From: Thermodesulfatator atlanticus DSM 21156 | Lineage (GTDB): Bacteria; Desulfobacterota; Thermodesulfobacteria; Thermodesulfobacteriales; Thermodesulfatatoraceae | Length of the DNA stretch: 32,000 bases | NCBI RefSeq assembly: GCF_000421585.1 | Contig: NZ_ATXH01000004.1 | Location: 55,926-87,925 of the forward strand | Direction of reading: 5' to 3' | Shown: one piece after another, positions 5,034-25,525 of the stretch | How positions within the stretch are numbered: position 1 is the first letter of the stretch | Layout: each line of letters starts with the position of its first letter | Translations under genes and position numbers: made by a program | The notes under the pieces: generated by a model | Seen by the model: the letters and a program-made list of their open reading frames with translations, nothing else | The model's database searches: none | What the model was told of the DNA's origin: nothing

Positions 5034-8000
5034 ATGGAATATTACGTTGGGCTTGACGTAGGTTCTGGCACTGCCAAAGTAGCGGTTTTAAATGAAAAGC
5101 GGGAAATACTTTTTCACGCCTATGAAAAAACCCACGGGCAACCTGTAGAAACTGCGGAACGGCTGCTTGCCCAGGTAGAAGAAAAGTTTGGCGGAAAGCT
5201 CACTGGCCTTACCTGCACCGGTACCGCAGGGAAGACCATTTCGCAAATCCTTGGGGTTGCCTTTGTAAACGAGGTCATGGCCCATGCCCGAGCTGTTGAG
5301 CACTTTCATCCTGAAGCACGCACTATTATCGATATCGGCGGAGAAGACTCAAAGCTTGTTTTTATCTCCCACGAAGACGGGAAATTTCGCATCAAAGACT
5401 TTGCCCTTAATACCCTTTGCGCTGCGGGGACAGGGGCCTTTTTGGAACAACAGGCCGCGCGCCTTGGTTACACCATTCAGGAATTTAGCAAACTTGCCCT
5501 AAAGGCCGAAAACATCCCCCGGATCGCAGGGCGCTGCACTGTGTTTGCCAAGTCTGACATGATTCATCTCCAACAAGCCGCTGTCCCTGATCATGAAATC
5601 ATCGCAGGGCTTTGTTTTGCCATTGTGCGTAACCTAAAAAGCAACTTGGCCAAAGGGAAAAAAGTACTTCCTCCCATTGTTTTTCAAGGTGGAGTTGCCG
5701 CTAATTTTGGAGTGCGCCGCGCTATCAAAGAAGTCTTTAACCTCAAAGAGGGAGAGCTTATCATTCCAGAGTATCACTTTATCATGGGAGCCATTGGAGC
5801 TGCGCTTTACGGACTAGACGGCAAATTTGCCGCCGCATACCAGGGTTCAAATATCCTTAAGGAATACCTAAAGGAACGCAAACGCTCAGTTAAAAGGCTT
5901 CCAAAACTCGGACCTTATACCGTGAGGACCCCTAAGACCGAAACTTATTTCCCAAAAAACGCTTCCAAACTCAAAATTTACGTTGGGATTGACGTTGGTT
6001 CGGTAAGCACCAAGCTCGTAGCAATAAACGAAGAAGGAAAAGTTATTGCTAAAACCTATGCCCTGCACCACGGCAAACCTCTTGAAAGCGTTAAAAAAGG
6101 GCTCCTTGATCTTTATGGCAGACTTCCTAAAAACTTTGAAATCGAGGTCTTGGGCGTTGGCACCACGGGTTCCGGGCGCTATCTGGTAGGAGACTTTGTG
6201 GGGGCTGATGTAATTAGAAACGAAATCACCGCCCAGGCCAAGGCAGCTGCTTTTATAGATCCAGAAGTTGATACCATTATCGAAATAGGCGGTCAGGATT
6301 CAAAGTTTATTCGCCTTGAGAAAGGAACTATCGTTGACTTTACCATGAACAAAGCCTGTGCTGCAGGCACTGGCTCTTTTCTTGAAGAACAAGCGGTAAG
6401 GCTAAACGTACCCATTGAAGAATTTGGACTCTACGCTTTGAAATCTGAAGCCCCAGTGGAAATGGGAGAACGCTGCACGGTTTTTATGCAATCTGACCTT
6501 TTGCACTATCAGCAGCAGGGGCTTCCCAAAGAAGACCTCATCGCTGGGCTTTGTTATGCCATCGTGCACAACTATCTCAACAAGGTAGTTGAAGGCCGCA
6601 AAATCGGGGAAAAGATCTTTTACCAAGGGGCCACAGCCTTTAACGCAGGCATTGTGGCAGCCTTTGACAAGGTCCTTGGCAAGGAAATAATCGTCCCGCC
6701 GCATCATGAGGTAACCGGAGCCCTGGGAGCAGCGCTCCTTGCCAGGGAAGAAACCAAAGGAAAATCTTCTTTCCGTGGTTTTGACCTTTCGAAGGTCAAC
6801 TACAAAATCGAGACGTTTGAATGTCACGCCTGCCCAAACCGTTGTGAAATCAGAAAAGTTACCATAGAAGAAAGCAGGCCTTATTTTTACGGTGGACGTT
6901 GCGAAAAATACGAAGTTGACCACCGCAAACCCCCTGAAACCCTGCCTAATCTGGTCTCAGAGCGAGAAGCCAAGCTTCTTAGCTTTCTTGCTCAACGAGA
7001 TGATGCCAAGCGCGGTGAGATTGGATTACCACGCATGCTTTTCAATTTTGAAAGGCTCCCGTTTTTTGCCACTCTTCTTCAGGAACTGGGCTTTAAAGTG
7101 GTAGTATCTGACCCCACCAATAAAAAACTTATTAACGAAGGCTGTGAAATAGTAGCAGCAGAGACCTGTTTTCCGGTAAAGGTTGCCCACGGGCATGTTT
7201 TAAATCTTCTTGAAAAGGGCATAAAAAAGATCTTTGTGCCCTATATCGTTGATCTCCCTTCTGATCACCCAGCCCTTGGCTCTGGAAAAATTTGCCCTTA
7301 CGTGCAAAGTGTAGCAGCAGCTTTTGAGGCCTCTATAAACTTGAAAGAACACGGAGCTGAAATCCTGGCTCCGGTTTTCCACTTTGGCACCGGGGGTAAA
7401 GTCCTTGAGAAAGAAAAAAAAGAACTCGCGCGCCTTTTGGACGTTCCAGAAAGAAAGCTCAGAAAAGCCTGGGAGCAAGCGGAAGCTGCCCAAAAAGAAT
7501 TTGACTCCTGGCTTAAGAGCCGCGGGCGCGAAATACTTGCTAGTTTGAAACCAGACGAAGTGGCCTTGGTTATTGTTGGCCGTCCGTACAATGCCTTTGA
7601 CCCCGGCGCAAATCTTGCCATTCACAACAAGATAAGAAGCCTGGGAGTGCTTGGCATACCCGTAGATATGCTCCCTCTTCACGAAATAAAAGAACTTGAC
7701 GGCCTTGAAGATATGTACTGGCGCTACGGCCAAAGAATACTTCTTGCGGCACACTTTATTAGAAAACATCCCTCTCTTTATCCTATTTTCCTGACCAACT
7801 TTTCCTGTGGCCCGGACTCGTTCATTATCCACTTTTTTGAAGAACTTTTGGGAGGAAAACCCTTCCTTGAACTCGAAATAGACGAACATAGCGCCGATGC
7901 AGGGGTAGTTACCAGAATCGAGGCCTTTCTTGATAGTGTACGGGGAAAAAAGATTTCTCCAGAAAGACCTGTCAAGCCTCACAGGAAAAGAGTCAAGCCT

Positions 8001-9212
8001 GAAGACCAGCGGGTTATTTATCTTCCGTACATGTCTGACCACGTCTATGGACTTGCAGCGGTATTTCGTGCTTGCGGCGTGGATGCTGAGGTTCTCCCAG
8101 AGTCTGACGAAGAATCCCTTAAGCTCGGACGCCGTTACACTTCTGGCAAAGAGTGCTACCCCGCGGTGCTCACCACAGGCGATATGATAAAAATGCTTAA
8201 ACAGCCTGATTTTAACCCGAAACGTGCGGCCTTTTTTATGCCTTCTGGCTCAGGACCATGTCGTTTCGGCCAATATAACCGTCTTCACCGCAAAATACTC
8301 GACGAACTCGGTTATGAAGACGTGCCAATCTATTCGCCCACACAAAATTTCAAACTTTACCAAGAGCTTGGCATGATAGGAGGCGACTTCGTAAGGCTTT
8401 CCTGGAAAGTGTTGGTTTGTATCGATATTCTGGATAAGTTCTTACGCGAAATAAGACCTTATGAATTAAATCCCGGAGAGACTGAAAAGGTCTATCACGA
8501 GTGTCTTAAAAAACTCTGCAAAGCTGTAGAAGAGAGAAAAGATCTCTTGCGGGTGATGGAAGAGGCCCGTGAAGCCTTTAGCCAGATTCCTACAGAGGAC
8601 TTCGGACAAAAGCCTGTAGTGGGTATTGTGGGCGAAATCTATGTGCGCATGAATCGTTTTGCCAACGAAGACTTGATAAAAGTGCTTGAAGAGATGGGAG
8701 CGGAAGTCTGGCTTCCGCCTGTTTCTGAGTGGTTTTATTACATTAACTACACCTCAAAAAGATGGGCTAAGCGGCTTCGCAAATTCCGTGAACTCACCCG
8801 CCTTATTATAGAAAACCACGTGCAGGTGAAAGACGAACACCGGTTTGCAAGCCTGGTAAAAGATATTTTGCGCACAGCAGAAGACCCTTCCATTGACGAA
8901 ATACTTGGCCTTGCTCGCAAATACATAAACGACGAGTTTGAAGGCGAAGCTATTCTTTCTGTTGGGAAAAGTCTTGATTACCTCAAAAAAGGTGTAAACG
9001 GCATTATAAACGTTATCCCCTTTACCTGTATGCCGGGAACGGTGGTAGCCATGCTTCTCAAGCGGGTACGCGAAGAAAATGGCATGGTTCCTGTGCTCAC
9101 GGTTTCATGCGATGGGCAGCGCTCTATGGGAACGCGGATGAGGCTTGAGGCCTTTATGCACCAGGTAAAGGAACATTTTGCCGAACAAAAAGACAGGCGC
9201 AAGGCAGCCTAG
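5034..9212 (+). CDS. Fused protein with two BadF/BadG/BcrA/BcrD-type (2-hydroxyacyl-CoA dehydratase activator-like) ATPase modules plus large DUF2229/CoA-enzyme-activase-type C-terminal domains
   Basis: There are two acetate/sugar-kinase-fold repeats: YVGLDVGSGTAKVAV...DIGGEDSK...CAAGTGAFLE...RCTVFAKSD and YVGIDVGSVSTKLVA...EIGGQDSK...CAAGTGSFLE...RCTVFMQSD. These are followed by a Cys cluster CHACPNRC...C (6822-6902) and about 800 aa of the conserved C-terminal region. A strong SD (AGGAGG) precedes the ATG. Confidence 0.8.
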   Translation: MEYYVGLDVGSGTAKVAVLNEKREILFHAYEKTHGQPVETAERLLAQVEEKFGGKLTGLTCTGTAGKTISQILGVAFVNEVMAHARAVEHFHPEARTIIDIGGEDSKLVFISHEDGKFRIKDFALNTLCAAGTGAFLEQQAARLGYTIQEFSKLALKAENIPRIAGRCTVFAKSDMIHLQQAAVPDHEIIAGLCFAIVRNLKSNLAKGKKVLPPIVFQGGVAANFGVRRAIKEVFNLKEGELIIPEYHFIMGAIGAALYGLDGKFAAAYQGSNILKEYLKERKRSVKRLPKLGPYTVRTPKTETYFPKNASKLKIYVGIDVGSVSTKLVAINEEGKVIAKTYALHHGKPLESVKKGLLDLYGRLPKNFEIEVLGVGTTGSGRYLVGDFVGADVIRNEITAQAKAAAFIDPEVDTIIEIGGQDSKFIRLEKGTIVDFTMNKACAAGTGSFLEEQAVRLNVPIEEFGLYALKSEAPVEMGERCTVFMQSDLLHYQQQGLPKEDLIAGLCYAIVHNYLNKVVEGRKIGEKIFYQGATAFNAGIVAAFDKVLGKEIIVPPHHEVTGALGAALLAREETKGKSSFRGFDLSKVNYKIETFECHACPNRCEIRKVTIEESRPYFYGGRCEKYEVDHRKPPETLPNLVSEREAKLLSFLAQRDDAKRGEIGLPRMLFNFERLPFFATLLQELGFKVVVSDPTNKKLINEGCEIVAAETCFPVKVAHGHVLNLLEKGIKKIFVPYIVDLPSDHPALGSGKICPYVQSVAAAFEASINLKEHGAEILAPVFHFGTGGKVLEKEKKELARLLDVPERKLRKAWEQAEAAQKEFDSWLKSRGREILASLKPDEVALVIVGRPYNAFDPGANLAIHNKIRSLGVLGIPVDMLPLHEIKELDGLEDMYWRYGQRILLAAHFIRKHPSLYPIFLTNFSCGPDSFIIHFFEELLGGKPFLELEIDEHSADAGVVTRIEAFLDSVRGKKISPERPVKPHRKRVKPEDQRVIYLPYMSDHVYGLAAVFRACGVDAEVLPESDEESLKLGRRYTSGKECYPAVLTTGDMIKMLKQPDFNPKRAAFFMPSGSGPCRFGQYNRLHRKILDELGYEDVPIYSPTQNFKLYQELGMIGGDFVRLSWKVLVCIDILDKFLREIRPYELNPGETEKVYHECLKKLCKAVEERKDLLRVMEEAREAFSQIPTEDFGQKPVVGIVGEIYVRMNRFANEDLIKVLEEMGAEVWLPPVSEWFYYINYTSKRWAKRLRKFRELTRLIIENHVQVKDEHRFASLVKDILRTAEDPSIDEILGLARKYINDEFEGEAILSVGKSLDYLKKGVNGIINVIPFTCMPGTVVAMLLKRVREENGMVPVLTVSCDGQRSMGTRMRLEAFMHQVKEHFAEQKDRRKAA

Positions 9213-9268: not shown

Positions 9269-9868
9269 GTGCGTATTAAACATTGGATGGTCAAAGACGT
9301 AATCACCATTTCGCCAGACGCCACCATTGAAGAAGCAGTGCAATTGATGAAAAAACATTCCATTCGTCATCTGCCCGTGATGGAAGACGATGAACTGGTA
9401 GGCCTGGTAACAGAAAGCAGCATCCGCCAGTACACCCTTCCTTCTCTTATGGAAACACTTCCTGTGCGAGAAGTAATGATTATCAATCCTGTCACCGTAG
9501 ATGCGGAAGCCACTATTGATGAGGCAGCCAAGTTGATACACCGTTACAAAATAGGCGGGCTTCCAGTAACCCACGGTGGCAAGCTGGTTGGTATCATAAC
9601 GGTGACTGATTTGCTAGAAGCTTTTATTGAGCTCATGGGCATTTTGCGCTCAAGTTCACGCATTGATGTTATTCCTGCGGAAAACAAAAGCTTCGAAGAG
9701 GTGCTTGACATTATTCGTCATCACGGCGGGCGCATTATTTCCGTGGGCATGGATGTCCATTCCTCAGGCGAAAAGATTTACTACATACGTCTTGAAAAGT
9801 GCCCTTTAGACCCTATTGCAGCTGCCCTTGAACTAGCAGGGCATCAAATTATTTCATTGGTGGAATAG
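9269..9868 (+). CDS. CBS-pair protein with C-terminal ACT-like domain (AcuB-like)
   Basis: There are two CBS motifs (VKDVITISPDATIEEAVQLMKKHSIRHLPV, VREVMIINPVTVDAEATIDEAAKLIHRYKIGGLPV). The ~70-aa tail (RIDVIPAENKSFEEVLDIIRHHGGRIISV) has an ACT-like pattern. GTG start, with GGGAG upstream. Confidence 0.75.
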   Translation: MRIKHWMVKDVITISPDATIEEAVQLMKKHSIRHLPVMEDDELVGLVTESSIRQYTLPSLMETLPVREVMIINPVTVDAEATIDEAAKLIHRYKIGGLPVTHGGKLVGIITVTDLLEAFIELMGILRSSSRIDVIPAENKSFEEVLDIIRHHGGRIISVGMDVHSSGEKIYYIRLEKCPLDPIAAALELAGHQIISLVE

Positions 9869-9876
9869 GAGGACAC

Positions 9877-11061
9877 ATGGCTTTTAAAGTAAAAAAGACC
9901 ATCGACGAAATCAATGAAAAGATCAAGCGTGGTGAGGCCGTAGTAGTTACTGCGGAAGAAATGGTAAAAATAGTAAAAGACGTAGGCCCAACGGAAGCCG
10001 CTGCCGAAGTTGACGTAGTGACCACGGGCACTTTTGCTCCCATGTGTTCCTCTGGAGCTTTTATAAACTTTGGACATTCCACCCCTGCCATCAAAGCCCA
10101 CCGTGTCTGGCTAAACGGTGTCCCGGCATATGCCGGCATTGCCGCGGTGGATATCTATATCGGCGCAACAGAGCCTTGCGAAGACGATCCTTTGAACAAG
10201 GTCTATCCTGGAGAATTCCGCTATGGTGGAGGCCACGTTATTCAAGATCTGGTTGCCGGAAAAACCGTATATTTACGTGCTACAGCGTATGGCACCCATT
10301 GCTATCCACGCAAATACCTAGAAAAAGAAATCACCTTAAAAGACCTCCCCTATGCCCTTTTATGTAATCCTCGTAATGCCTATCAAAATTACAACTGCGC
10401 TATTAACCTCTCCGACAAAACGATTTACACCTACATGGGCATCTTACGCCCTAAAGCGGGCAACGCGAACTATGCTACTTCTGGAGAGCTATCTCCCTTG
10501 TTTAAAGATCCCTATCTCCGTACCATCGGTGTGGGTACCCGCATTTTCCTTGGAGGCGGCGTAGGCTACGTAGCCTGGGCCGGAACCCAGTGTAATTTCA
10601 AAGTGCCGCGCACGGAAAAAGGCGCTCCTCTTTCGCCAGCAGCCACCCTTATGGTCTATGGCGATTTGAAACAAATGTCTTCTGAATGGCTGGTGGGAGT
10701 TAGCATCCTTGGCTATGGTTGCTCGCTGGCAGTGGGTGTAGGTGTGCCTATCCCAATCCTAAACGAAGAAGTCGCTGCCTTTGCCGGGCTTTCTGACGAA
10801 GAACTTTTTACGCAAGTAGTTGACTACGCCCACGACTATCCCAACGGAATCAAACGCTCCTACGGAACAGTAAGCTATGCCGAACTTAAAAGCGGTAAAA
10901 TAAAAGTCCTTGATAAGGAGATCCCTACGGTTCCGCTTTCAAGTATGGTCAAAGCGCGTAAAATCGCTAACATCTTAAAGACCTGGATAAAAGAAAAGAA
11001 CTTCTTGTTAACAGAGCCTCAAGCGCCGTTTCCAGGCACAGAGCTTTATCCGTTTCGTTAG
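9877..11061 (+). CDS. COG1900 / DUF39 homocysteine-biosynthesis (aspartate-semialdehyde sulfurtransferase-type) protein
   Basis: The N-terminus KKTIDEINEKIKRGEAVVVTAEEM, then VDVVTTGTF, NGVPAYAG.AAVDIYIGAT and GGGHVIQDLV are characteristic of the DUF39 family as I recall it. SD AGGAGG lies 5 nt upstream. Confidence 0.8.
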   Translation: MAFKVKKTIDEINEKIKRGEAVVVTAEEMVKIVKDVGPTEAAAEVDVVTTGTFAPMCSSGAFINFGHSTPAIKAHRVWLNGVPAYAGIAAVDIYIGATEPCEDDPLNKVYPGEFRYGGGHVIQDLVAGKTVYLRATAYGTHCYPRKYLEKEITLKDLPYALLCNPRNAYQNYNCAINLSDKTIYTYMGILRPKAGNANYATSGELSPLFKDPYLRTIGVGTRIFLGGGVGYVAWAGTQCNFKVPRTEKGAPLSPAATLMVYGDLKQMSSEWLVGVSILGYGCSLAVGVGVPIPILNEEVAAFAGLSDEELFTQVVDYAHDYPNGIKRSYGTVSYAELKSGKIKVLDKEIPTVPLSSMVKARKIANILKTWIKEKNFLLTEPQAPFPGTELYPFR

Positions 11062-11858
11062 TGAGTGAGCTTAAAGCCAAGTTAAAGCGGCTGGAAAACC
11101 TCTTAAAAGGCCTTGGCCAAGTTTCCGTAGCTCTTTCTGGGGGTCTTGATAGTGGTGTGTTGCTGTTGCTGGCCAAAGATTCTCTAGGCCGTAAAAACGT
11201 CTTGGCGCTCACCTGTGCTTCGGAAATAATGCCATCATCTGATCTTGCCCAGGCAAGGATGTTAGCCCTTAAGGCAGGCGTAAGACACCTTGTTTTGCCC
11301 TTTGACCACCTGGCTTTAGAAGCCTTTAAAATTAATCCTCCTGAACGCTGCTATTTTTGTAAGAAAGCTATGTTTTCTTTCTTCTTGGAAAAAAGCCCCT
11401 ACCCCCTTATCGACGGAAGCCAGGTAGATGACCTGAAAGAAGAAAGACCAGGACTTAAAGCGCTAAACGAGCTAAAAATACTCTCGCCCCTTAAAGAAGC
11501 CGGTTTAAACAAAAAAGATTTGCGTAAATTGGCTCGCTCCTACGGGTTAACTTCATATAAAAAAGCAGCTTCCCCATGTCTTGCCACGCGTTTTTTAACA
11601 GGTGAGCCCATAACCAAAGAAGGCCTGGCCAAAGTGGCAAAAGCTGAAGCTTATCTTAATGCCCTGGGGTTTTCCTTATGCCGCGTGCGCATAAAAGAAA
11701 ACCTGTGTATCATTCAGGTTTATCCCCAAGAAAGCGAAAAAATTCTAAGTTATCAACAGAATATCCTGGAAACATTTAAAAACATAGGATTTAAGAAGAT
11801 ATTAATTGACCTTGAAGGTTATAAACCCCCGCTTAAGCCTGGTTATTCCAGGTCGTAA
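11061..11858 (+). CDS. PP-loop ATP pyrophosphatase, LarE-like sulfur transferase (TIGR00268/COG1606 type), three-Cys variant
   Basis: SGGLDS PP-loop (11136-11153), CYFC (Cys97/Cys100, 11349-11360) and SPCLATRF (Cys173, 11577-11579). The GTG start shares one nt with the COG1900 TAG stop (TAGTG). Confidence 0.75.
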   Translation: MSELKAKLKRLENLLKGLGQVSVALSGGLDSGVLLLLAKDSLGRKNVLALTCASEIMPSSDLAQARMLALKAGVRHLVLPFDHLALEAFKINPPERCYFCKKAMFSFFLEKSPYPLIDGSQVDDLKEERPGLKALNELKILSPLKEAGLNKKDLRKLARSYGLTSYKKAASPCLATRFLTGEPITKEGLAKVAKAEAYLNALGFSLCRVRIKENLCIIQVYPQESEKILSYQQNILETFKNIGFKKILIDLEGYKPPLKPGYSRS

Positions 11859-19174: not shown

Positions 19175-19473
19175 ACCTTCCAGAATTCACCTTAAAAGAA
19201 AAAATTGAACTTTTAGCAGGAATTATTCTTTGCATTCTTTTTAGTATCCGTTACTACCCTGAAAACCTAGAAAGAACCTTTTATGAGTCTTTTCGCTGGA
19301 TGTTTAGCTTCTTTGTCTATAGTGGTCTCATGGCTTACATGTTTCACGGCTTTTGCCGCAAGATCTTGAAACAGACATTTTCCCTGAAGACAGGGATAAA
19401 AATGACCATCTGGCTGGCCCTTTTGTCCGCCATTGTCCAGTCCATGCATGAAATGCTAAAGCATCAACCTTAA
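19171..19473 (+). CDS. Small integral membrane protein (about 3 TM), unknown function
   Basis: Three hydrophobic segments (LLAGIILCILFSI, MFSFFVYSGLMAYMF, MTIWLALLSAIV). ATGA overlap with the preceding gene. Its stop overlaps the stop of the convergent M16 gene. Confidence 0.5.
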   Translation: MNLPEFTLKEKIELLAGIILCILFSIRYYPENLERTFYESFRWMFSFFVYSGLMAYMFHGFCRKILKQTFSLKTGIKMTIWLALLSAIVQSMHEMLKHQP

Positions 19474-22109
19474 TCTTCTAAAGGCCCCACGGTAACCAAA
19501 ACATAAGGTTTGTTTTCAAGATATTTTTTAGCAACTTCTGAAATATCTTCCCATTCAACATTTTGGATTTTCTGGATATAACGCAAGCCATAATTATAAC
19601 CAAGCCCTAAAACTTCGTTTACGGCCTGATCCATAGCTTGCGACATGTTAGTTTGAAGGCCGGTAATATAGCGGCCCACCAACCAACGTTTGGCCCGTTT
19701 GATCTCTTCGTCGGTAACACCTTCTTGGTTAACCTTGGCAATTTCGCGCCAAAGCCCAGAAAGGGCTAACTTTTTCTTCGCAGGTTCTGTGGCAATGTAA
19801 AATCCTATACCACCGGTGTTGATACCCAAAGTAAGAAATGAGGTTACAGAGTATGCCAGGGCTTCCTCATCGCGCAGAGTTTTAAACAACCTGCCTCCCT
19901 GCCCGGCAAGCACAGCATTAAGTACTTCCATGGCATACCGGTCCTCGGAAAACATACTTGGCCCTCTAAAACCCAAAATCAAATGGACTTGCTCTCTGTC
20001 GATATTGATGGTTGAAAGCTTGGGTTCAAGAAGTGGCTCAGGCTCTTTATCTTCAGGAAGGGGCTTAGCTTCCTTTTGCCAGGTACCAAAATATTTTTCT
20101 AGAAGCGGCATAATTTTTTCAGGATCAACATCTCCTACGATGGAAAGAACGCCGCGAGATGGTGCAACATAATCTTCATAGGCCTTTTTAATGGCTTCCG
20201 CATGGAGATTTTCGATAACATCGCGAGAACCTAGGATATTTAAGCCGTAAGGATGTGGAGCAAAAAGTAAGCGATAAAATTCCCTGATAGCAAGCTGGAG
20301 GGGATCATCTTCCTGACGGGCTAAGGCAGCCAACAGCTCTGGCTTTAATTTTTCGAGCTCGGACTCAGAAAAGGCAGGCTTTTCAGCAACTTCCGCAAAA
20401 AGACTTAGTGCTTTTTCTAAATTTTCAGAAAGGAAGCTTCCCTTTAGGCCAAAGGTATTTCTTCCAGAAAATCCAGCAATTTCTCCCCCCATGGATTCCA
20501 CCAAAGTAGCCAGCATATCCGCTGATTTTTCAAGAGTGCCTTTAGTCCACAAAGAGGCAAGCGCGCGGAACAGGCCGTTTGTCTTTTCGGTTTCAAAACG
20601 TAAGCCTCCAGGAAAAACAAGGGCCATAGAAAAAGCAGGAACGTCTTTTTGGGGGGTAATAAGAACAGTTAAGCCGTTGGCAAGCTTCTTTTTGACCGTT
20701 GGGGAAACCCAATGTTCCATCCCAGGTGAAATCCCTGAGGCCTCCATTTCCGCTTCTTCAACAAGGACCTGTAAATCTTCTGGAGAAATAAGTTGAGAGA
20801 CATTTTGAGCCAAAAGCCCCGCTACTACTGCTTGAGGCGTAAAATACTTTTCGGCAACTTCTTTTATCTGGGCGGCGGTTACTTTTTTAATAGCCTCAAG
20901 GTACTTTTTGGCTTTAAGTGGATCCCCTGTAAGAATTTCAAAAGCGCCTAGTTTGCGCGCCTCTCCCTGCATGGTTTCACGACTATAGACGAAATCAGCA
21001 GCAACCATGGTCTTGGCTTTTTCAAGTTCTTCAGGGAGCACCGGGTCATATTTCAGACGAAAAATCTCAACCAGGGATTCTTTGATAGCTTCCCGCAAGT
21101 TCTCTGGTGGAGCGGTGCCAGCTACCTCAAAAAGCCCTGGGCCCTTGGGGGTAAAAGTGTAAGCGTAAATAGTGTGGACTATTCCCTTTTCACGGCGAAG
21201 TTGTTGATAAAGACGCGAAGACTCTCCTTGACCTAAAAGCACGGCAATGACATCCATTACCGGGGCTTCTGGTTTAAGGATACTCGGTCCGGGCAGGGCC
21301 AGATGAAAATAACCTTCTTTTACGTCTCTATCTAAAGTCACCAAGGCTGGTTCTTTCTTAGGAGGTTCTTGCGGAAAATTTACAACTTGAGGAGGAAGCT
21401 TTGGCTCGTTACCAAAGTAAGAGGCAATCTTGGCAAGGGCTTGCTCAGCGTTCACATCACCTACCACAACCACCGCCATATGCACTGGACGATATCTGCG
21501 GGCCATATAATCGAGAATATCTTTACGGGTGATGGCTTTTACCGTCTCAGGATAGCCAATAATTGGACGGCGATAGGGATATTTGAGATAGGCCTTTTGC
21601 ATGACAGCTTCTGCAAGAGCAAGAGCCGGCCGGTCATTTCTCATGCGCATTTCTTCAAGGACCACCTGCTTTTCACGTTCTAGCTCCTGCGGATCAAAAA
21701 TCGAATGAAAAATGGCATCTGAAAGGACATCAAGGGCGGTTTCTAATATCTCCCGCGGGCCTGTCACATAATAACAGGTATAATCGTAAGAGGTGAAAGC
21801 GTTAATGCTTCCGCCAAAACTTTCGATGGTGGAGGCAATTTCTCCGGGCTTACGCTTCTCGGTACCTTTGAAAATCATGTGTTCAATAAGGTGCGTAATA
21901 CCAGCTTCGCTGTCTTTCTCGTAGGCACTTCCAGCCTTTACCCACACTTGAACAGCCACTACCGGAGCACGGTGGTTCTCCTCGACTATAACGGTTAGAC
22001 CATTGCCTAGAACCGTTTTGTAAAGACCCGGAGCTATTTCCATAGCGCGAACCCCAGTTGAAAAAATTAAAAAAGAGAGGCCCAAAAGTAGCATCCATAT
22101 ATACCGCAT
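19470..22109 (-). CDS. Secreted double-module M16 (pitrilysin/insulinase) family zinc peptidase
   Basis: Signal peptide MRYIWMLLLGLSFLIFSTGVRA. HLIEHMIFKGT (the HxxEH zinc site) is in the first half, and a second M16-like half lacks HxxEH. SD GGAGG lies upstream. Confidence 0.85.
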   Translation of the reverse strand: MRYIWMLLLGLSFLIFSTGVRAMEIAPGLYKTVLGNGLTVIVEENHRAPVVAVQVWVKAGSAYEKDSEAGITHLIEHMIFKGTEKRKPGEIASTIESFGGSINAFTSYDYTCYYVTGPREILETALDVLSDAIFHSIFDPQELEREKQVVLEEMRMRNDRPALALAEAVMQKAYLKYPYRRPIIGYPETVKAITRKDILDYMARRYRPVHMAVVVVGDVNAEQALAKIASYFGNEPKLPPQVVNFPQEPPKKEPALVTLDRDVKEGYFHLALPGPSILKPEAPVMDVIAVLLGQGESSRLYQQLRREKGIVHTIYAYTFTPKGPGLFEVAGTAPPENLREAIKESLVEIFRLKYDPVLPEELEKAKTMVAADFVYSRETMQGEARKLGAFEILTGDPLKAKKYLEAIKKVTAAQIKEVAEKYFTPQAVVAGLLAQNVSQLISPEDLQVLVEEAEMEASGISPGMEHWVSPTVKKKLANGLTVLITPQKDVPAFSMALVFPGGLRFETEKTNGLFRALASLWTKGTLEKSADMLATLVESMGGEIAGFSGRNTFGLKGSFLSENLEKALSLFAEVAEKPAFSESELEKLKPELLAALARQEDDPLQLAIREFYRLLFAPHPYGLNILGSRDVIENLHAEAIKKAYEDYVAPSRGVLSIVGDVDPEKIMPLLEKYFGTWQKEAKPLPEDKEPEPLLEPKLSTINIDREQVHLILGFRGPSMFSEDRYAMEVLNAVLAGQGGRLFKTLRDEEALAYSVTSFLTLGINTGGIGFYIATEPAKKKLALSGLWREIAKVNQEGVTDEEIKRAKRWLVGRYITGLQTNMSQAMDQAVNEVLGLGYNYGLRYIQKIQNVEWEDISEVAKKYLENKPYVLVTVGPLED

Positions 22110-22320
22110 AACCGCCTCCTTTCTTTTGACAACTCAACTTTAATTTTCGGTTTTCTGCAAGATTATAGCAAGCAGGTAGAGTATTTTTTTTATTTTCGTA
22201 AAAAAATGCCAAGCTTTTTCTTTTCAAAAAGTTTGACAGTTTGATTCAATTTTGATAGGGGATGTTCTTGAATGTTTCGATATTTTTTAATCAAAATTTT
22301 TGTTAGGAGGGAGGGAATGC

Positions 22321-23487
22321 ATGTCTGACTTCAAAGAAGCAATCTCAAGGAGTTGGAAGGCTTTTGCTCAGTCAAACTGGTCTCCCATGATGGGTGGTAT
22401 CTTGCTCGCTATTTTTTGTGTTTTCTTAGAAGCATGGTATCGCCCCTGGGGAATTGTCGGAGGTCTTAGAAACTGGGCAGATTGGCTCTTTTACGGCATA
22501 GGTTTTTATGAAGACGCTCCCCCTCATCCTTTGGAGTTCTCATCATCTGTATTGAATATCGGATATATATGGGGAGCGATGATATCTGCCATGCTTGCTC
22601 GTGAATTCGGATTACGTTTTCCCCCAAAAATCGAGTACGTAAAAGCAATTGTTAGCGGTATTCTCATGGGTCTTGGTTCTGCCTTGGCCATGGGTTGTAA
22701 CGTTGGAGGATACTATGTAGCAATCCAAAATCTTGCAGCAAACGGCTTTTTAATGGCTATAGGGTTAACTTTTGGTGTTATCGTAGGAATTAAATATCTT
22801 TACTGGGAATTGGAACATTTCCCTTCAAGTGGCGGTTTTGAAATAAGTTTTCGAAAGATTAGCCCTTACATTGGCTTTCTATTGTTTGTGGGTCTTATTG
22901 TAGCTACTTATGCCTATTTCCGAAGCGATTTGGACAACGGCGAAGTCCTGGGTGGATGTCTAATAATTACCGCTGGCATTGGTTACGTCATTCACCGCAG
23001 TCGTTTCTGTATGGTCAATGGTTTCCGTGAACCCTTTATGACAGGCGAAGCCTCCATGGGTAAAGCCATTATGGTAAGCATCATTATTGGAGCCATTGGT
23101 GTATCTATCCTCAAGTATCAAGAAATCCGGCCGGAAATGATGTACGTGACCCCGACCTTTGGTTTGGGTGCCCTTTTGGGAGGCTTTATCTTTGGCGCAG
23201 CCATGGTTGTAGCTGGTGGGTGCGGCTCTGGTGCTCTTTGGCGTGTTGCTGAAGGCCAAATCAAGCTCTGGGTAGTTGCTTTCTTCTTCGCTTTGTCAAA
23301 CTCTCTTATACGTCACTATTTCGCAGAATATGACGTTATTGAAAACGGATACCTTGGTAAAGCCGTCTTTATGCCAGAGTACTTAGGCTATGGAGGAACA
23401 TTGTTTCTAATTACTCTTATTTGTGTCGTTTGGTACATCATTATCGATTGGAATGAAGATTCCAATAAGATGGTCATAGAAATGTAA
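22321..23487 (+). CDS. YeeE/YedE-family sulfur-compound (thiosulfate-type) transporter
   Basis: Multi-pass membrane protein with three conserved-Cys motifs: AMGCNVGG, SRFCMVNGFREP and AGGCGSGALW. The ATG at 22321 follows AGGAGGGAGGG; the track start at 22300 is a TTG inside the leader. Confidence 0.85.
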   Translation: MSDFKEAISRSWKAFAQSNWSPMMGGILLAIFCVFLEAWYRPWGIVGGLRNWADWLFYGIGFYEDAPPHPLEFSSSVLNIGYIWGAMISAMLAREFGLRFPPKIEYVKAIVSGILMGLGSALAMGCNVGGYYVAIQNLAANGFLMAIGLTFGVIVGIKYLYWELEHFPSSGGFEISFRKISPYIGFLLFVGLIVATYAYFRSDLDNGEVLGGCLIITAGIGYVIHRSRFCMVNGFREPFMTGEASMGKAIMVSIIIGAIGVSILKYQEIRPEMMYVTPTFGLGALLGGFIFGAAMVVAGGCGSGALWRVAEGQIKLWVVAFFFALSNSLIRHYFAEYDVIENGYLGKAVFMPEYLGYGGTLFLITLICVVWYIIIDWNEDSNKMVIEM

Positions 23488-23515
23488 ATAATAAAAACTA
23501 AAAGGAGGATAAGCT

Positions 23516-23776
23516 ATGTCTGATGTCAAAGTAGCCCCAGAAGGAATTACCCCAGATGTAACTCTTGATTGTAAGGGTCTTTCTTGTCCTATGCCTTTGC
23601 TTAAAACCAAAAAGGCTGTTCAGAAGATGAAACCTGGCCAGATCTTAGAAGTATTGGGGACTGACCCTGGTTCTAAGAACGACTTGCCTGGCTGGTGTGA
23701 AAGGGCTGGCCACGAGTTTCTTGGGGTCCGCGAAGAAGGAGGGTTCTTCCGCTTTTATATCAAAGTAGGCGGATAA
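23516..23776 (+). CDS. TusA-family sulfurtransferase
   Basis: LDCKGLSCPMPLLKTKKA (CPxP active site), ILEVLGTDPGSKNDLPGWCERAGHEF. SD AAGGAGG. Confidence 0.88.
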   Translation: MSDVKVAPEGITPDVTLDCKGLSCPMPLLKTKKAVQKMKPGQILEVLGTDPGSKNDLPGWCERAGHEFLGVREEGGFFRFYIKVGG

Positions 23777-23810
23777 CCACAGCTTCAATACAAAATTAGG
23801 AGGTGTTTTT

Positions 23811-24146
23811 ATGTCTAGCAGAGATCCGGACAAATTGGGCATTTTTGTAACCACGCCCCAGTATATGAACCACTTGATGAAAATAGTAGAAGCAGCCCAA
23901 AGGGCTGGCAAAAAAGTAAAAGTGTTTTTTACTTTCAAGGCGGTTCATTTAACCAAACAACCTGATTTTCCCAAGTTAGTACAAATGATCCCTGAAGAAG
24001 ACCTAGCCATCTGTGCAGATTCTTATACCTGCGAAGGTTTTGATCTTGAAACTGATATTCCAGGGGGCATGAAGCCTTCTCAGTTGCGCACACAGGCTTT
24101 TCACGGACAAATCTTGGAAGAATGTGGCGCATACTTAGTGCTTTAA
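23811..24146 (+). CDS. DsrE/DsrF-like small protein
   Basis: 111 aa. The KLGIFVTT beta-1 strand, an internal Cys pair ICADSYTCEGF and the tail QILEECGAYLVL fit a DsrE-fold layout. SD AGGAGG. The assignment rests on pattern only. Confidence 0.55.
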   Translation: MSSRDPDKLGIFVTTPQYMNHLMKIVEAAQRAGKKVKVFFTFKAVHLTKQPDFPKLVQMIPEEDLAICADSYTCEGFDLETDIPGGMKPSQLRTQAFHGQILEECGAYLVL

Positions 24147-24159
24147 AGGAGGGATAAAT

Positions 24160-24525
24160 ATGGAATCTTTAAAGATTTATTTTTTAGTAGCAAACAGAAT
24201 TTACATTACTGACTGTATTAGATCCACCCTGGGACAGTCAGTAGAAAACCACTATTCTCACTGTTGTGTGTTTTACAACAAAATGCCGCGTCTCACAGAC
24301 TATGTCAAAGAAAATATCGAATGGATTCGCGATATGGAAGGTGAAGTATATTGTGTGGTAGATACTATCGCAGACGAAGAAGCAAAAAAATACAACATTG
24401 AAGAAGCCGGACTCACTCCTATTACTCTCGAAGAACTAGCCCAAAAATTAAAAGAGGCAGACGTTGTTATTGGATACGGCATGCCCAAACAAAAGAAAGA
24501 TCCTCCACCAGCTTGTGCTGATTAA
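24160..24525 (+). CDS. Cys-rich conserved-hypothetical-type protein (121 aa) of the YeeE-TusA-DsrE operon
   Basis: SD AAGGAGGG lies 6 nt upstream. It has five Cys, including a vicinal HCCVF pair and a Cys three residues from the C-terminus on a Pro/Lys-rich tail (PKQKKDPPPACAD). I cannot name a family. Confidence 0.55.
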   Translation: MESLKIYFLVANRIYITDCIRSTLGQSVENHYSHCCVFYNKMPRLTDYVKENIEWIRDMEGEVYCVVDTIADEEAKKYNIEEAGLTPITLEELAQKLKEADVVIGYGMPKQKKDPPPACAD

Positions 24526-24547
24526 TTCCTAAGAGGAGGGATACGAA

Positions 24548-24727
24548 ATGAAGATTCTTCACGTATATCGTAACGAACCAACAGACGAAGTAAAAAAGTT
24601 AGTAGAAATTTTAAACGAGGGTAACGAAGCCCAAGAGTTTAAGCTTTATGAAGCAAAAGAAGATGCAGATTACGACAAATTAATTCAGCTGATATTTGAA
24701 GCTGACAAAACCATTAGCTGGTGGTAA
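24548..24727 (+). CDS. 59-aa ORF, not in the supplied track (below its length cutoff), last gene of the operon
   Basis: GAGGAGGGatacgaaATG, translating to MKILHVYRNEPTDEVKKLVEILNEGNEAQEFKLYEAKEDADYDKLIQLIFEADKTISWW, with TAA at 24725-24727. A hairpin terminator follows directly. Confidence 0.55.
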   Translation: MKILHVYRNEPTDEVKKLVEILNEGNEAQEFKLYEAKEDADYDKLIQLIFEADKTISWW

Positions 24728-24736
24728 AAGTCTAAC

Positions 24737-24766
24737 AGGAGCAGGCATTTGGCCTGCTCCTATTTG
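24737..24766 (+). terminator. Rho-independent-type terminator hairpin closing the YeeE operon
   Basis: AGGAGCAGGC (24737-24746), loop ATTTG, then GCCTGCTCCT (24752-24761), giving a perfect 10-bp stem. It is followed by ATTTGGCTATTTGG, a moderately T-rich run. Confidence 0.6.
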
Positions 24767-24897
24767 GCTATTTGGTCAAGTTTTTGAGACCACATAAAGA
24801 GCTTAAACAGTAAAAGCGCAAGCCCAATCCTCAAAACCCACATATACCACGGACTGTTTTTAAAATAATAGACTACAAACTTAAAAAATCGCTTCAC
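24760..24897 (-). CDS. Possible 45-aa membrane peptide coupled to hpt (speculative)
   Basis: The GTG overlaps the hpt TGA (GTGA). It translates to VKRFFKFVVYYFKNSPWYMWVLRIGLALLLFKLFMWSQKLDQIAK, with one hydrophobic helix. There is no independent SD and it is below the track cutoff. Confidence 0.2.
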   Translation of the reverse strand: MKRFFKFVVYYFKNSPWYMWVLRIGLALLLFKLFMWSQKLDQIAK

Positions 24898-25421
24898 GAG
24901 ACCCTCTCTATTTCATAAATTGCCGGAAGATGGCGATATTTTTCTGCAAAATCAAGCCCATACCCCACTAAAAAACCCTTGGGAACATAAAAACCGCGAT
25001 AATCAATCGAAATTTCTACCTCACGGCGCTCAGGCTTATCTATCAAACAACAAACTTTAACAGAACGGGGTTCATAACGGGGAAGTACTTTTAGATAATA
25101 ATCAAGCGTTATCCCGGTATCGATGATATCTTCAACGATTAAAACATCTTTGTCCTTTAATGATATTTCAACATCTTTGGTGATTTTTACTTCGCCAGAA
25201 GTGGCATCAGCGTATCCGTAACTTGCAAGCCTAACAAAGTCTATTTCAAGCTGTTCAAGGTGAACGGCTCGCACCAGATCAGCAAGAAAAATAAAGGCTC
25301 CCTTAAGAATTCCAATAAAAACCACCCTGCGCCCCTGATAATCTTTTGAAATATCCCGGGCAAGCTCTTTAATACGTTTGGCAATCTCTTCTTGAGAAAT
25401 AACAAGCTTTAACCTTTCCAT
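24894..25421 (-). CDS. hpt: Hypoxanthine(-guanine) phosphoribosyltransferase
   Basis: PRPP-binding motif VLIVEDIIDTGITL, then KVCCLIDKPERR, and the GYGLDFAEKYRHLP tail. Confidence 0.92.
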   Translation of the reverse strand: MERLKLVISQEEIAKRIKELARDISKDYQGRRVVFIGILKGAFIFLADLVRAVHLEQLEIDFVRLASYGYADATSGEVKITKDVEISLKDKDVLIVEDIIDTGITLDYYLKVLPRYEPRSVKVCCLIDKPERREVEISIDYRGFYVPKGFLVGYGLDFAEKYRHLPAIYEIERVS

Positions 25422-25525
25422 TTTTCCCTCCCACTCTGATGTGGATACCTCAGAGAACGGATTTTGGCAACGAAGAATTTCTTCTTGTTGGGAGTAAAGT
25501 CATGAATAGCCCAAGGGGATCCCTT

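Follow-up and report, generated by a model that had tools for sequence, protein, structure and literature searches.

A yedE-tusA-dsrEFH type II operon in Thermodesulfatator atlanticus and its probable role as a persulfide-sulfur relay

The five-gene locus and its products

The locus described here is a five-gene sulfur operon of Thermodesulfatator atlanticus DSM 21156, located on contig NZ_ATXH01000004.1; all positions refer to the 32,000-nt stretch of this contig that was analyzed (the window). Five tightly packed open reading frames (ORFs) lie on the forward strand, separated from gene 1 to gene 5 by gaps of 28, 34, 13 and 22 nt, and each start is preceded at the usual distance by GGAGG or AGGAGG (Table 1). 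An earlier note on this DNA, made from the letters alone, had placed the same ORFs, spacing and Shine-Dalgarno sites, all of which were confirmed. The products of genes 1, 3 and 4 match T. atlanticus RefSeq proteins exactly, that of gene 5 shares 100% identity with a T. atlanticus protein, and the same 20-kb neighbourhood is present on several assemblies. The feature is real, correctly delimited and already known. Its identity as a yedE-tusA-dsrEFH type II operon, formerly the YTD cluster, is close to certain, and the earlier note had already given the cluster its YTD name.

Table 1. Genes and putative signals of the operon (positions in the window)
Feature	Position	Strand	Remarks
Gene 1, YedE/YeeE-family membrane sulfur channel	22321-23487	+	388 aa; ATG start agrees with RefSeq WP_022852788.1
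Gene 2, TusA sulfur carrier	23516-23776	+	86 aa; active Cys24 in CPMP motif
Gene 3, DsrE type II	23811-24146	+	111 aa; WP_022852790.1; sulfur-binding Cys68, second invariant Cys74
Gene 4, DsrF type II	24160-24525	+	121 aa; WP_022852791.1; probably flexible tail at the C terminus, PPPACAD, including Cys119
Gene 5, DsrH type II, shortened DsrH/TusB-like subunit	24548-24727	+	59 aa
Putative -35 hexamer of the operon promoter, TTGACA	22233-22238	+	conserved in alignment
Putative extended -10, TG-a-TAGGGG	22253-22261	+	17 nt after the -35; conserved in alignment
Hairpin closing the operon, putative terminator	24737-24761	+	perfect 10-bp stem, 5-nt loop, read directly

Gene 1 encodes a clear member of the Pfam Sulf_transp family (E 1.1e-49, 170 bits against a cutoff of 27) and is related to the solved thiosulfate channel StYeeE (6LEO; E 2.4e-19). 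The alignment with StYeeE runs in swapped pieces, residues 216-326 matching StYeeE 8-116 and residues 55-152 matching StYeeE 225-319, while the protein is collinear over residues 69-380 with the YedE/FdhT model NF033796, at only 120 bits against a cutoff of 350. With halves in the reverse order of those of YeeE and in the same order as in YedE/FdhT, gene 1 is YedE-type by topology and not YeeE/TsuA-type, and the family thus includes circularly swapped topologies. No curated NCBIfam equivalog cutoff was reached and all were far missed, including those of the TsuA models (89.5 against 645 bits and 103.7 against 400 bits). The three cysteine motifs seen earlier in gene 1 are confirmed: none of C126, C230 and C301 varies among 69 orthologues, and they line up with StYeeE C293, C22 and C91. 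The YeeE label given to the gene at that time holds for membership in Sulf_transp and fails for the YeeE/TsuA type, given the swapped halves and the sub-cutoff scores.

Gene 2 matches Pfam TusA (PF01206; E 4.8e-29, 100.4 bits against a gathering cutoff of 28.6), narrowly misses the NCBIfam TusA equivalog (62.8 against 78 bits) and is not a YeeD/TsuB protein according to NCBIfam (17 bits against a cutoff of 147.5). The TusA CPxP site recognized in the earlier reading is Cys24-Pro-Met-Pro, invariant in 79 orthologues.

The three remaining genes had been described as a DsrE-like protein followed by two unknown proteins, in a module of no characterised function. This description is out of date. 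In Electronema aureum, genes 3-5 of the YTD cluster, a name credited to that paper's reference 20, have been shown to encode a complex of the DsrEFH type II kind that transfers sulfur in vitro (Plum-Jensen et al. 2026, ISME J, PMC13293266), and the three proteins co-purify at 1:1:1 as a heterotrimer or hexamer. An independent structural assignment has likewise found them DsrEFH-like, terming them a non-orthologous structural analogue (2026, PMC13047784). T. atlanticus DSM 21156 is itself entered in the published table of carriers (Table S5, PMC13293266).

The assignment of genes 3-5 rests on gene order, relatedness and the active cysteine. A genome scan found 369 stretches encoding relatives of gene 4, and the statements on loci made here cover the best 80 of these 369. 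In 80/80 loci, wherever the contig extends far enough, tusA and genes 3, 4 and 5 are collinear and co-directional, with gene 4 always between genes 3 and 5; a survey of this synteny had been proposed in the earlier note, and genes 4 and 5 thus proved syntenic with tusA and gene 3. The yedE gene lies upstream on the same strand in most loci and is divergent in Desulfobulbaceae, including three Candidatus (Ca.) Electronema genomes. Comparison with these congeners of the characterised strain E. aureum GS (Ca. Electronema sp. KV, PJ and JM) gave identities of 59-61% for TusA, 61-62% for gene 3, 49% for gene 4 and 56-61% for gene 5, or about 55% for genes 3-5 when weighted by length; DsrEFH subtypes are defined at 40% identity of concatenated sequences (PMC13293266). 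The orthologue of gene 3 in Electronema sp. JM is 110 aa long and carries the cysteine of LAICADS at position 67, matching the numbering of PMC13293266. Cys68 of gene 3 stands in the same column as this Cys67 and is invariant in 37 homologues and in the 80 loci. Four hallmarks of DsrEFH type II are found here: syntenic genes 3-5, relatedness, the DsrE cysteine, and synteny with tusA and yeeE/yedE. A related entry in the same published table, Thermodesulfatator autotrophicus S606, is listed as "TusA-DsrEFH type II" without YeeE (Table S5, PMC13293266); on its contig NZ_LSFI01000035.1 (L014 4156-5319), tusA is directly preceded by a yedE-like gene with 88% identity to gene 1.

Curated family models do not place any of the three proteins in canonical (type I) DsrEFH/TusBCD. 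Gene 3 falls below the cutoff of Pfam DsrE (PF02635; E 0.0024, 18.5 against 22.7 bits), a model touched by only 5/37 members of its family, and its DsrE-like character is upheld by the Electronema identity and cysteine column. Genes 4 and 5 have no Pfam or NCBIfam match above noise, as the earlier note's inability to name them had suggested; gene 5 scores 12.6 bits against the 49.2 of TIGR03011 (TusB/DsrH), and the NCBIfam TusB, TusC and TusD equivalogs are reached by none of genes 3-5. The AlphaFold2 model of gene 4 (pLDDT, the predicted local distance difference test, 94.4; pTM, the predicted template modelling score, 0.87) has five top Foldseek matches in the PDB, all of the DsrE/DsrF/YchN fold (1jx7, 3mc3, 3pnx_B, 3pnx_A and 2fb6, from four PDB entries; probability 1.00, template modelling score about 0.6). 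The A. vinosum DsrEFH structure 2HY5 is not among the matches listed, and gene 5 gave no significant Foldseek match.

Several features of these families deserve mention in their own right. Gene 4 contains an insertion of about 9 residues (residues about 71-85, window 24370-24414; ADEEAKKYNIEE) with a predicted helix at 73-82, which is common only to Thermodesulfatator-, Thermosulfurimonas- and Thermosulfuriphilus-type sequences and is absent from the orthologues of Caldimicrobium, Dissulfuribacterales and Desulfobulbaceae. The gene 5 family measures 55-63 aa throughout; a few longer members (P0269, 217 aa; P0395, 162 aa; P0405, 131 aa, with the match at 73-131) may be fusions, for example of DsrF and DsrH, or gene-calling errors. 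Finally, orthologues of gene 3 (P0054, P0070, P0075, P0084, P0243) carry the names "cobalamin B12-binding domain-containing protein", "peroxiredoxin" or "hypothetical protein". The first two look like over-annotation, since the B12-binding Pfam match is only E 0.018 here.

Leader, promoter and hairpin

The 211-nt leader in front of gene 1 (22110-22320) is as AT-rich as first described, with a GC content of 0.313 against 0.449 in the window, which puts it in the lowest 0.6% of 211-nt windows. It is a divergent intergenic region, common to the operon and to the gene of an M16 peptidase. No RNA family was found by Rfam in the leader or elsewhere in 21500-25500. When the upstream regions of the window and 12 relatives were aligned, TTTGACA (window 22232-22238) was invariant in all 13 sequences, with flanks too diverged to align, and the TT-TG-TA columns were invariant in the same 13, the window reading TG at 22253-22254 and TAGGGG at 22256-22261. 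Situated about 85 nt ahead of gene 1, these conserved elements look like a sigma-70 promoter whose -10 is extended. Transcription would then start near 22268, leaving a 5' untranslated region of about 50 nt, and conservation of the promoter would imply a single five-gene transcript in this clade (Thermodesulfobacteria).

At the other end, the perfect 10-bp hairpin reported earlier was confirmed by direct reading as AGGAGCAGGC/ATTTG/GCCTGCTCCT and by folding: the 53 nt around it fold at -24.5 kcal/mol (z = -4.9), and 0/200 shuffles folded as well. It is followed by a U-poor tail, AUUUGGCUAUUUGG, with a weak U-tract, and it lies between convergent genes, the hpt gene ending at 24894. A scan for consensus promoters and terminators returned no more sites than shuffled sequence and missed both the conserved promoter and the hairpin, the former because its -10 is non-consensus and the latter because of the U-poor tail and its position between convergent genes.

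A proposed sulfur relay and its alternatives

Biochemical work on the orthologues gives the operon a likely function. In vitro, Electronema TusA persulfidates DsrE at Cys67 in a bidirectional reaction, a Cys67Ser variant abolishes the transfer between TusA and DsrE, and transfer from DsrEFH to DsrC is one-way (PMC13293266). The genes occur in 985 genomes, mostly together with reductive-type dsrAB (73.9% of carrier genomes), with a distribution confined to sulfur-dissimilating lineages, and the cluster has been argued to mark the capacity for sulfur oxidation and not for disproportionation (PMC13293266). According to Table S5 of the same paper, T. atlanticus is a sulfate reducer that disproportionates elemental sulfur (S0) and does not grow on thiosulfate.

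By orthology to these proteins, the operon probably encodes a cytoplasmic persulfide-sulfur relay fed by a membrane channel and leading to DsrC as proposed. The YedE-type channel of gene 1, with its three invariant mid-membrane cysteines, would bring reduced or sulfane sulfur species across the inner membrane; TusA would take up the sulfur as a persulfide on Cys24 and pass it to DsrE, at Cys68, within a type II heterotrimer or hexamer of DsrE, DsrF and DsrH; and this complex would load DsrC. DsrC would in turn feed the dissimilatory sulfite reductase system, in which sulfane sulfur would be oxidised to sulfite and then to sulfate. The proposed order of transfer from channel to TusA Cys24, DsrE Cys68 and DsrC is well supported by the characterised orthologues. 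We infer the transported species, the presence and use of DsrC and DsrAB in this genome, and the direction of net flux in vivo. In T. atlanticus, the relay would most plausibly serve as the oxidative branch of S0 disproportionation, and polysulfide or S0-derived sulfane sulfur is the most plausible feed for that branch, because the organism reduces sulfate, disproportionates S0 and does not use thiosulfate. The sulfur channel and persulfide relay already suggested in the earlier note are thus borne out by orthology to the Electronema proteins.

The operon may also hold parts of the relay that have escaped comment. DsrF Cys119, in residues 115-121 of gene 4 (PPPACAD; window 24502-24525), is invariant in 81/81 sequences (the 80 closest loci and the window), while the residues around it vary (PPPACAD, APPQCA, PPPACSEE) and the pLDDT of the tail drops to 62-78. 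The clade with this tail includes Thermodesulfobacteria, Dissulfuribacterales and cable bacteria. About 19/35 more distant homologues of gene 4 lack the tail, which is therefore not essential to every type II complex. DsrE likewise has a second cysteine, in the arrangement C68-x5-C74 (AICADSYTCEG; window 24012-24032); Cys74 is present in 100% of the 80 loci and in at least 90% of a broader set, in which the two homologues that diverge most (P0124, P0125) have Lys instead. Neither Cys74 nor Cys119 is discussed in PMC13293266 or PMC13047784, and cysteines other than Cys67, those of DsrF included, are treated as non-specific in the former. In that work, DsrF was loaded by polysulfide, DsrE took up two sulfurs, and the Cys67Ser complex still loaded DsrC, though not TusA (PMC13293266). 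These data would also be consistent with a second route, in which more than one cysteine is at work and the tail cysteine of DsrF, as a swinging arm, brings sulfur to DsrC; as an addition to the relay it is rather unlikely. Tail Cys119 could explain how the published Cys67Ser complex still loads DsrC. Such a swinging arm would resemble the C-terminal arm of DsrC itself.

Type II proteins are below 30% identity to type I (PMC13293266). Profile searches with the families of genes 3, 4 and 5 found nothing related in the PDB, and an exhaustive search with the gene 5 family reached no type I protein among 1.84 billion representatives; that sequence profiles do not reach type I has been stated likewise in PMC13293266 and PMC13047784. 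Against the same representatives, the hidden Markov model (HMM) of the gene 5 family had 293 matches, of which nearly all of the 150 listed were 54-64 aa long; the few longer ones aligned over at most 57 residues, providing no bridge to the 95-aa DsrH/TusB. Comparisons among the three families with hhalign were not significant (best, gene 3 against gene 5, E 5.8e-4, probability 29%). Those against single E. coli TusD, TusC and TusB sequences gave probabilities below 3%, and only gene 3 against TusD was informative, through the cysteine position: the alignment, statistically weak as it is, is collinear and sets Cys68 on the catalytic Cys78.

Gene 5 provides a further link. Its termini match E. 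coli TusB in two blocks, LHVYRNEP-TDEVKKLVEILNEGNE aligned to 25 TusB residues and DYDKLIQL...ISW aligned to DYTDFVRL...MAW, with about 36 TusB residues missing between them. Scored with permissive gaps, the window protein reached z 5.2 against TusB (0/2000 shuffles) and gave no signal against TusC or TusD; across the family the median z was 1.9, with 11/37 members above z 3 compared with 1/37 for a reversed-TusB control. Similar scores for gene 3 with TusD (z 2.0) and gene 4 with TusC (z 2.1) were dropped as evidence, because the reversed control also reaches z of about 2. The alignment of gene 5 is suggestive of a DsrH/TusB protein with its middle deleted, and it favours homology over analogy without proving it.

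A number of points weigh against the relay as set out above. The biochemistry, both of complex formation and of transfer from TusA to DsrE and from DsrEFH to DsrC, comes from E. aureum proteins only (PMC13293266). No dsr, apr, sat or qmo genes are present in the 32-kb window, so that the link to DsrC and DsrAB rests on the organism being a sulfate reducer. In vitro, TusA also loads DsrC directly, and the Cys67Ser complex still loads DsrC (PMC13293266); the complex is therefore not shown to be necessary. Oxidative use of reductive-type DsrAB lacks enzymatic proof (PMC13293266). To these must be added the low hhalign probabilities against TusBCD, the modest family-wide median for gene 5 and TusB, and the z of 2.4 that the reversed-TusB control reached against the gene 4 family, as a result of which a z of about 2 carries no weight.

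The original YTD hypothesis, that the cluster is a dedicated marker and machine for sulfur disproportionation, required for that of S0, thiosulfate or sulfite in particular and not for sulfur oxidation or DsrC loading in general, is compatible with the relay mechanism and differs from it only in physiological scope. It is possible, if doubtful, in this strict form. T. atlanticus does disproportionate S0, thiosulfate disproportionation raises the abundance of YTD proteins in Desulfolithobacter and of TusA in Dissulfuribacter, and many carriers in the best 80 loci bear the names of disproportionators (Thermosulfurimonas, Caldimicrobium, Dissulfuribacterales and Desulfocapsa). The cluster is nevertheless found in only 25/63 cultured disproportionators (PMC13293266), its occurrence is unrelated to the sulfur species that a strain disproportionates, and it is carried by many sulfate reducers that do not disproportionate. 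Thermodesulfatator indicus has the cluster but could not be made to grow by disproportionation (Allioux et al. 2022, PMC9676032). In cable bacteria and D. alkaliphilus the cluster is in use during sulfide oxidation. The association with disproportionating bacteria drawn in the earlier note therefore survives for some carriers and is weak as a general rule. Another view treats genes 3-5 as analogous to DsrEFH in structure but not homologous, as argued in PMC13047784; they would handle the products (sulfite and sulfide) of a thiosulfate uptake and decomposition system of the YeeE-YeeD type or help to convert polysulfide to sulfite, with no loading of DsrC. The failure of the profile and hhalign searches to connect the families with type I speaks for this view, as does the relation of gene 1 to the thiosulfate channel StYeeE. 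The view is quite unlikely on balance: gene 2 resembles TusA rather than YeeD/TsuB, Electronema TusA, DsrEFH II and DsrC were not persulfidated by thiosulfate (PMC13293266), thiosulfate does not support growth of T. atlanticus, TusD Cys78 is the partner of the active cysteine in the alignment, the termini of gene 5 match TusB well above the reversed control, and transfer to DsrC has been seen in vitro.

TusA is a hub for biosynthetic sulfur, and a TusA-TusBCD-type relay for thiolation (tRNA 2-thiouridine, molybdenum cofactor) or assimilatory uptake would fit the gene order E-F-H, which mirrors tusD-C-B, the resemblance of gene 5 to TusB, and a homocysteine sulfur-incorporation gene (PF01837) 11 kb upstream. 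Such a role is very improbable, given that no tusE, mnmA or molybdenum cofactor genes are adjacent, that the NCBIfam TusB, TusC and TusD equivalogs are missed, that cable bacteria and D. alkaliphilus express the proteins at very high levels, and that carriers are confined to sulfur-dissimilating lineages and mostly have reductive dsrAB (PMC13293266), a pattern that the named carriers in the 80 loci fit. A YedE-YedF-type module for selenium uptake or trafficking is scarcely credible. The best NCBIfam match of gene 1 is indeed the selenium-associated YedE/FdhT, and gene 2 hits YedF at 54 bits; both scores are far below cutoff (120 against 350 and 54 against 79), and the partner genes encode DsrEFH-like sulfur transferases with demonstrated sulfur transfer. 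A selenium link through a nearby AIRS-domain protein was considered and rejected, as the protein is HypE (409 bits) and not SelD, and with it the only hint of such a link is gone.

Genomic context and comparison with known systems

The operon is surrounded by genes for a double M16 peptidase, hpt, HypE, an AmmeMemoRadiSam radical SAM enzyme, CheX and CobU, and further by those for an Mrp/ApbC-type Fe-S carrier, a HEPN protein and flagellar functions. The peptidase gene (19470-22109, reverse strand), divergent from the operon, encodes an 879-aa protein with two M16 modules resembling fused YfmF/YfmH, and its adjacency is also seen on assemblies with an identical gene 4. At 9269-11858, a CBS-domain protein, the PF01837 homocysteine sulfur-incorporation enzyme (2e-156) and a protein weakly matching NAD_synthase (PF02540) are encoded in a row, in what looks like an assimilatory sulfur-incorporation unit. 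Finally, a 1392-aa ORF at 5034-9212 has BcrAD_BadFG ATPase and DUF2229 domains of the CoA-enzyme activase type.

If DsrEFH type II does load DsrC for oxidation, many sulfate reducers, T. atlanticus included, could use the same reductive-type Dsr enzymes to oxidise sulfur or to disproportionate it, an argument that is already in print (PMC13293266). The window is thus a confirmed instance of a known system in a species already tabulated, and not a discovery. What is added here is a conserved putative promoter defining the five-gene unit in Thermodesulfobacteria, the YedE-type topology of the channel, and the two extra invariant cysteines, DsrE Cys74 and DsrF Cys119. In addition, RefSeq still calls the proteins of genes 3-5 "hypothetical", the label carried by both WP_022852790.1 and WP_022852791.1, and relatives bear misleading names.

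The closest known system is TusA-DsrEFH II-YeeE/YedE of Electronema aureum GS (PMC13293266), which shares the gene content, the order tusA-dsrE-dsrF-dsrH, 49-62% identity, the active cysteine column, the subunit sizes (about 110, 115-121 and 57-59 aa) and the C-terminal PPPAC tail on DsrF. In T. atlanticus, however, yedE is co-directional and 28 nt upstream of tusA, whereas in Electronema and other Desulfobulbaceae it is divergent; likewise, the five genes look like one operon with one conserved promoter, whereas tusA-dsrEFH alone is co-transcribed in Electronema (PMC13293266). The T. atlanticus DsrF also differs by its helical insertion, and its host, a thermophile, reduces sulfate and disproportionates S0 and is not a sulfide oxidiser.

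The type I complexes, A. vinosum DsrEFH (2HY5/2HYB) and E. coli TusBCD (2D1P), similarly consist of three small paralogous subunits in the order E/D, F/C, H/B, with a single catalytic cysteine on the first subunit (I-C-[AV]-x-[SA]) and the DsrE/DsrF/YchN fold found for gene 4, and they pass sulfur from TusA to a protein of the DsrC/TusE family. Here, in contrast, the H subunit is about 36 residues shorter, the Pfam and NCBIfam models are missed at the low identity already noted, and type II goes with reductive-type and not oxidative-type dsrAB, and with a YedE-type channel. Finally, YeeE/TsuA-YeeD/TsuB of Spirochaeta thermophila (6LEO, 8J4C) and YedE-YedF of E. coli resemble the first two genes of the operon in having a Sulf_transp channel with three cysteines, followed by a TusA-fold partner with a CPxP cysteine. 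Compared with YeeE-YeeD, the halves of the gene 1 channel are in the swapped, YedE order, the partner scores as TusA and not as YeeD, and thiosulfate is neither a donor for the Electronema orthologues nor a growth substrate for T. atlanticus (PMC13293266).

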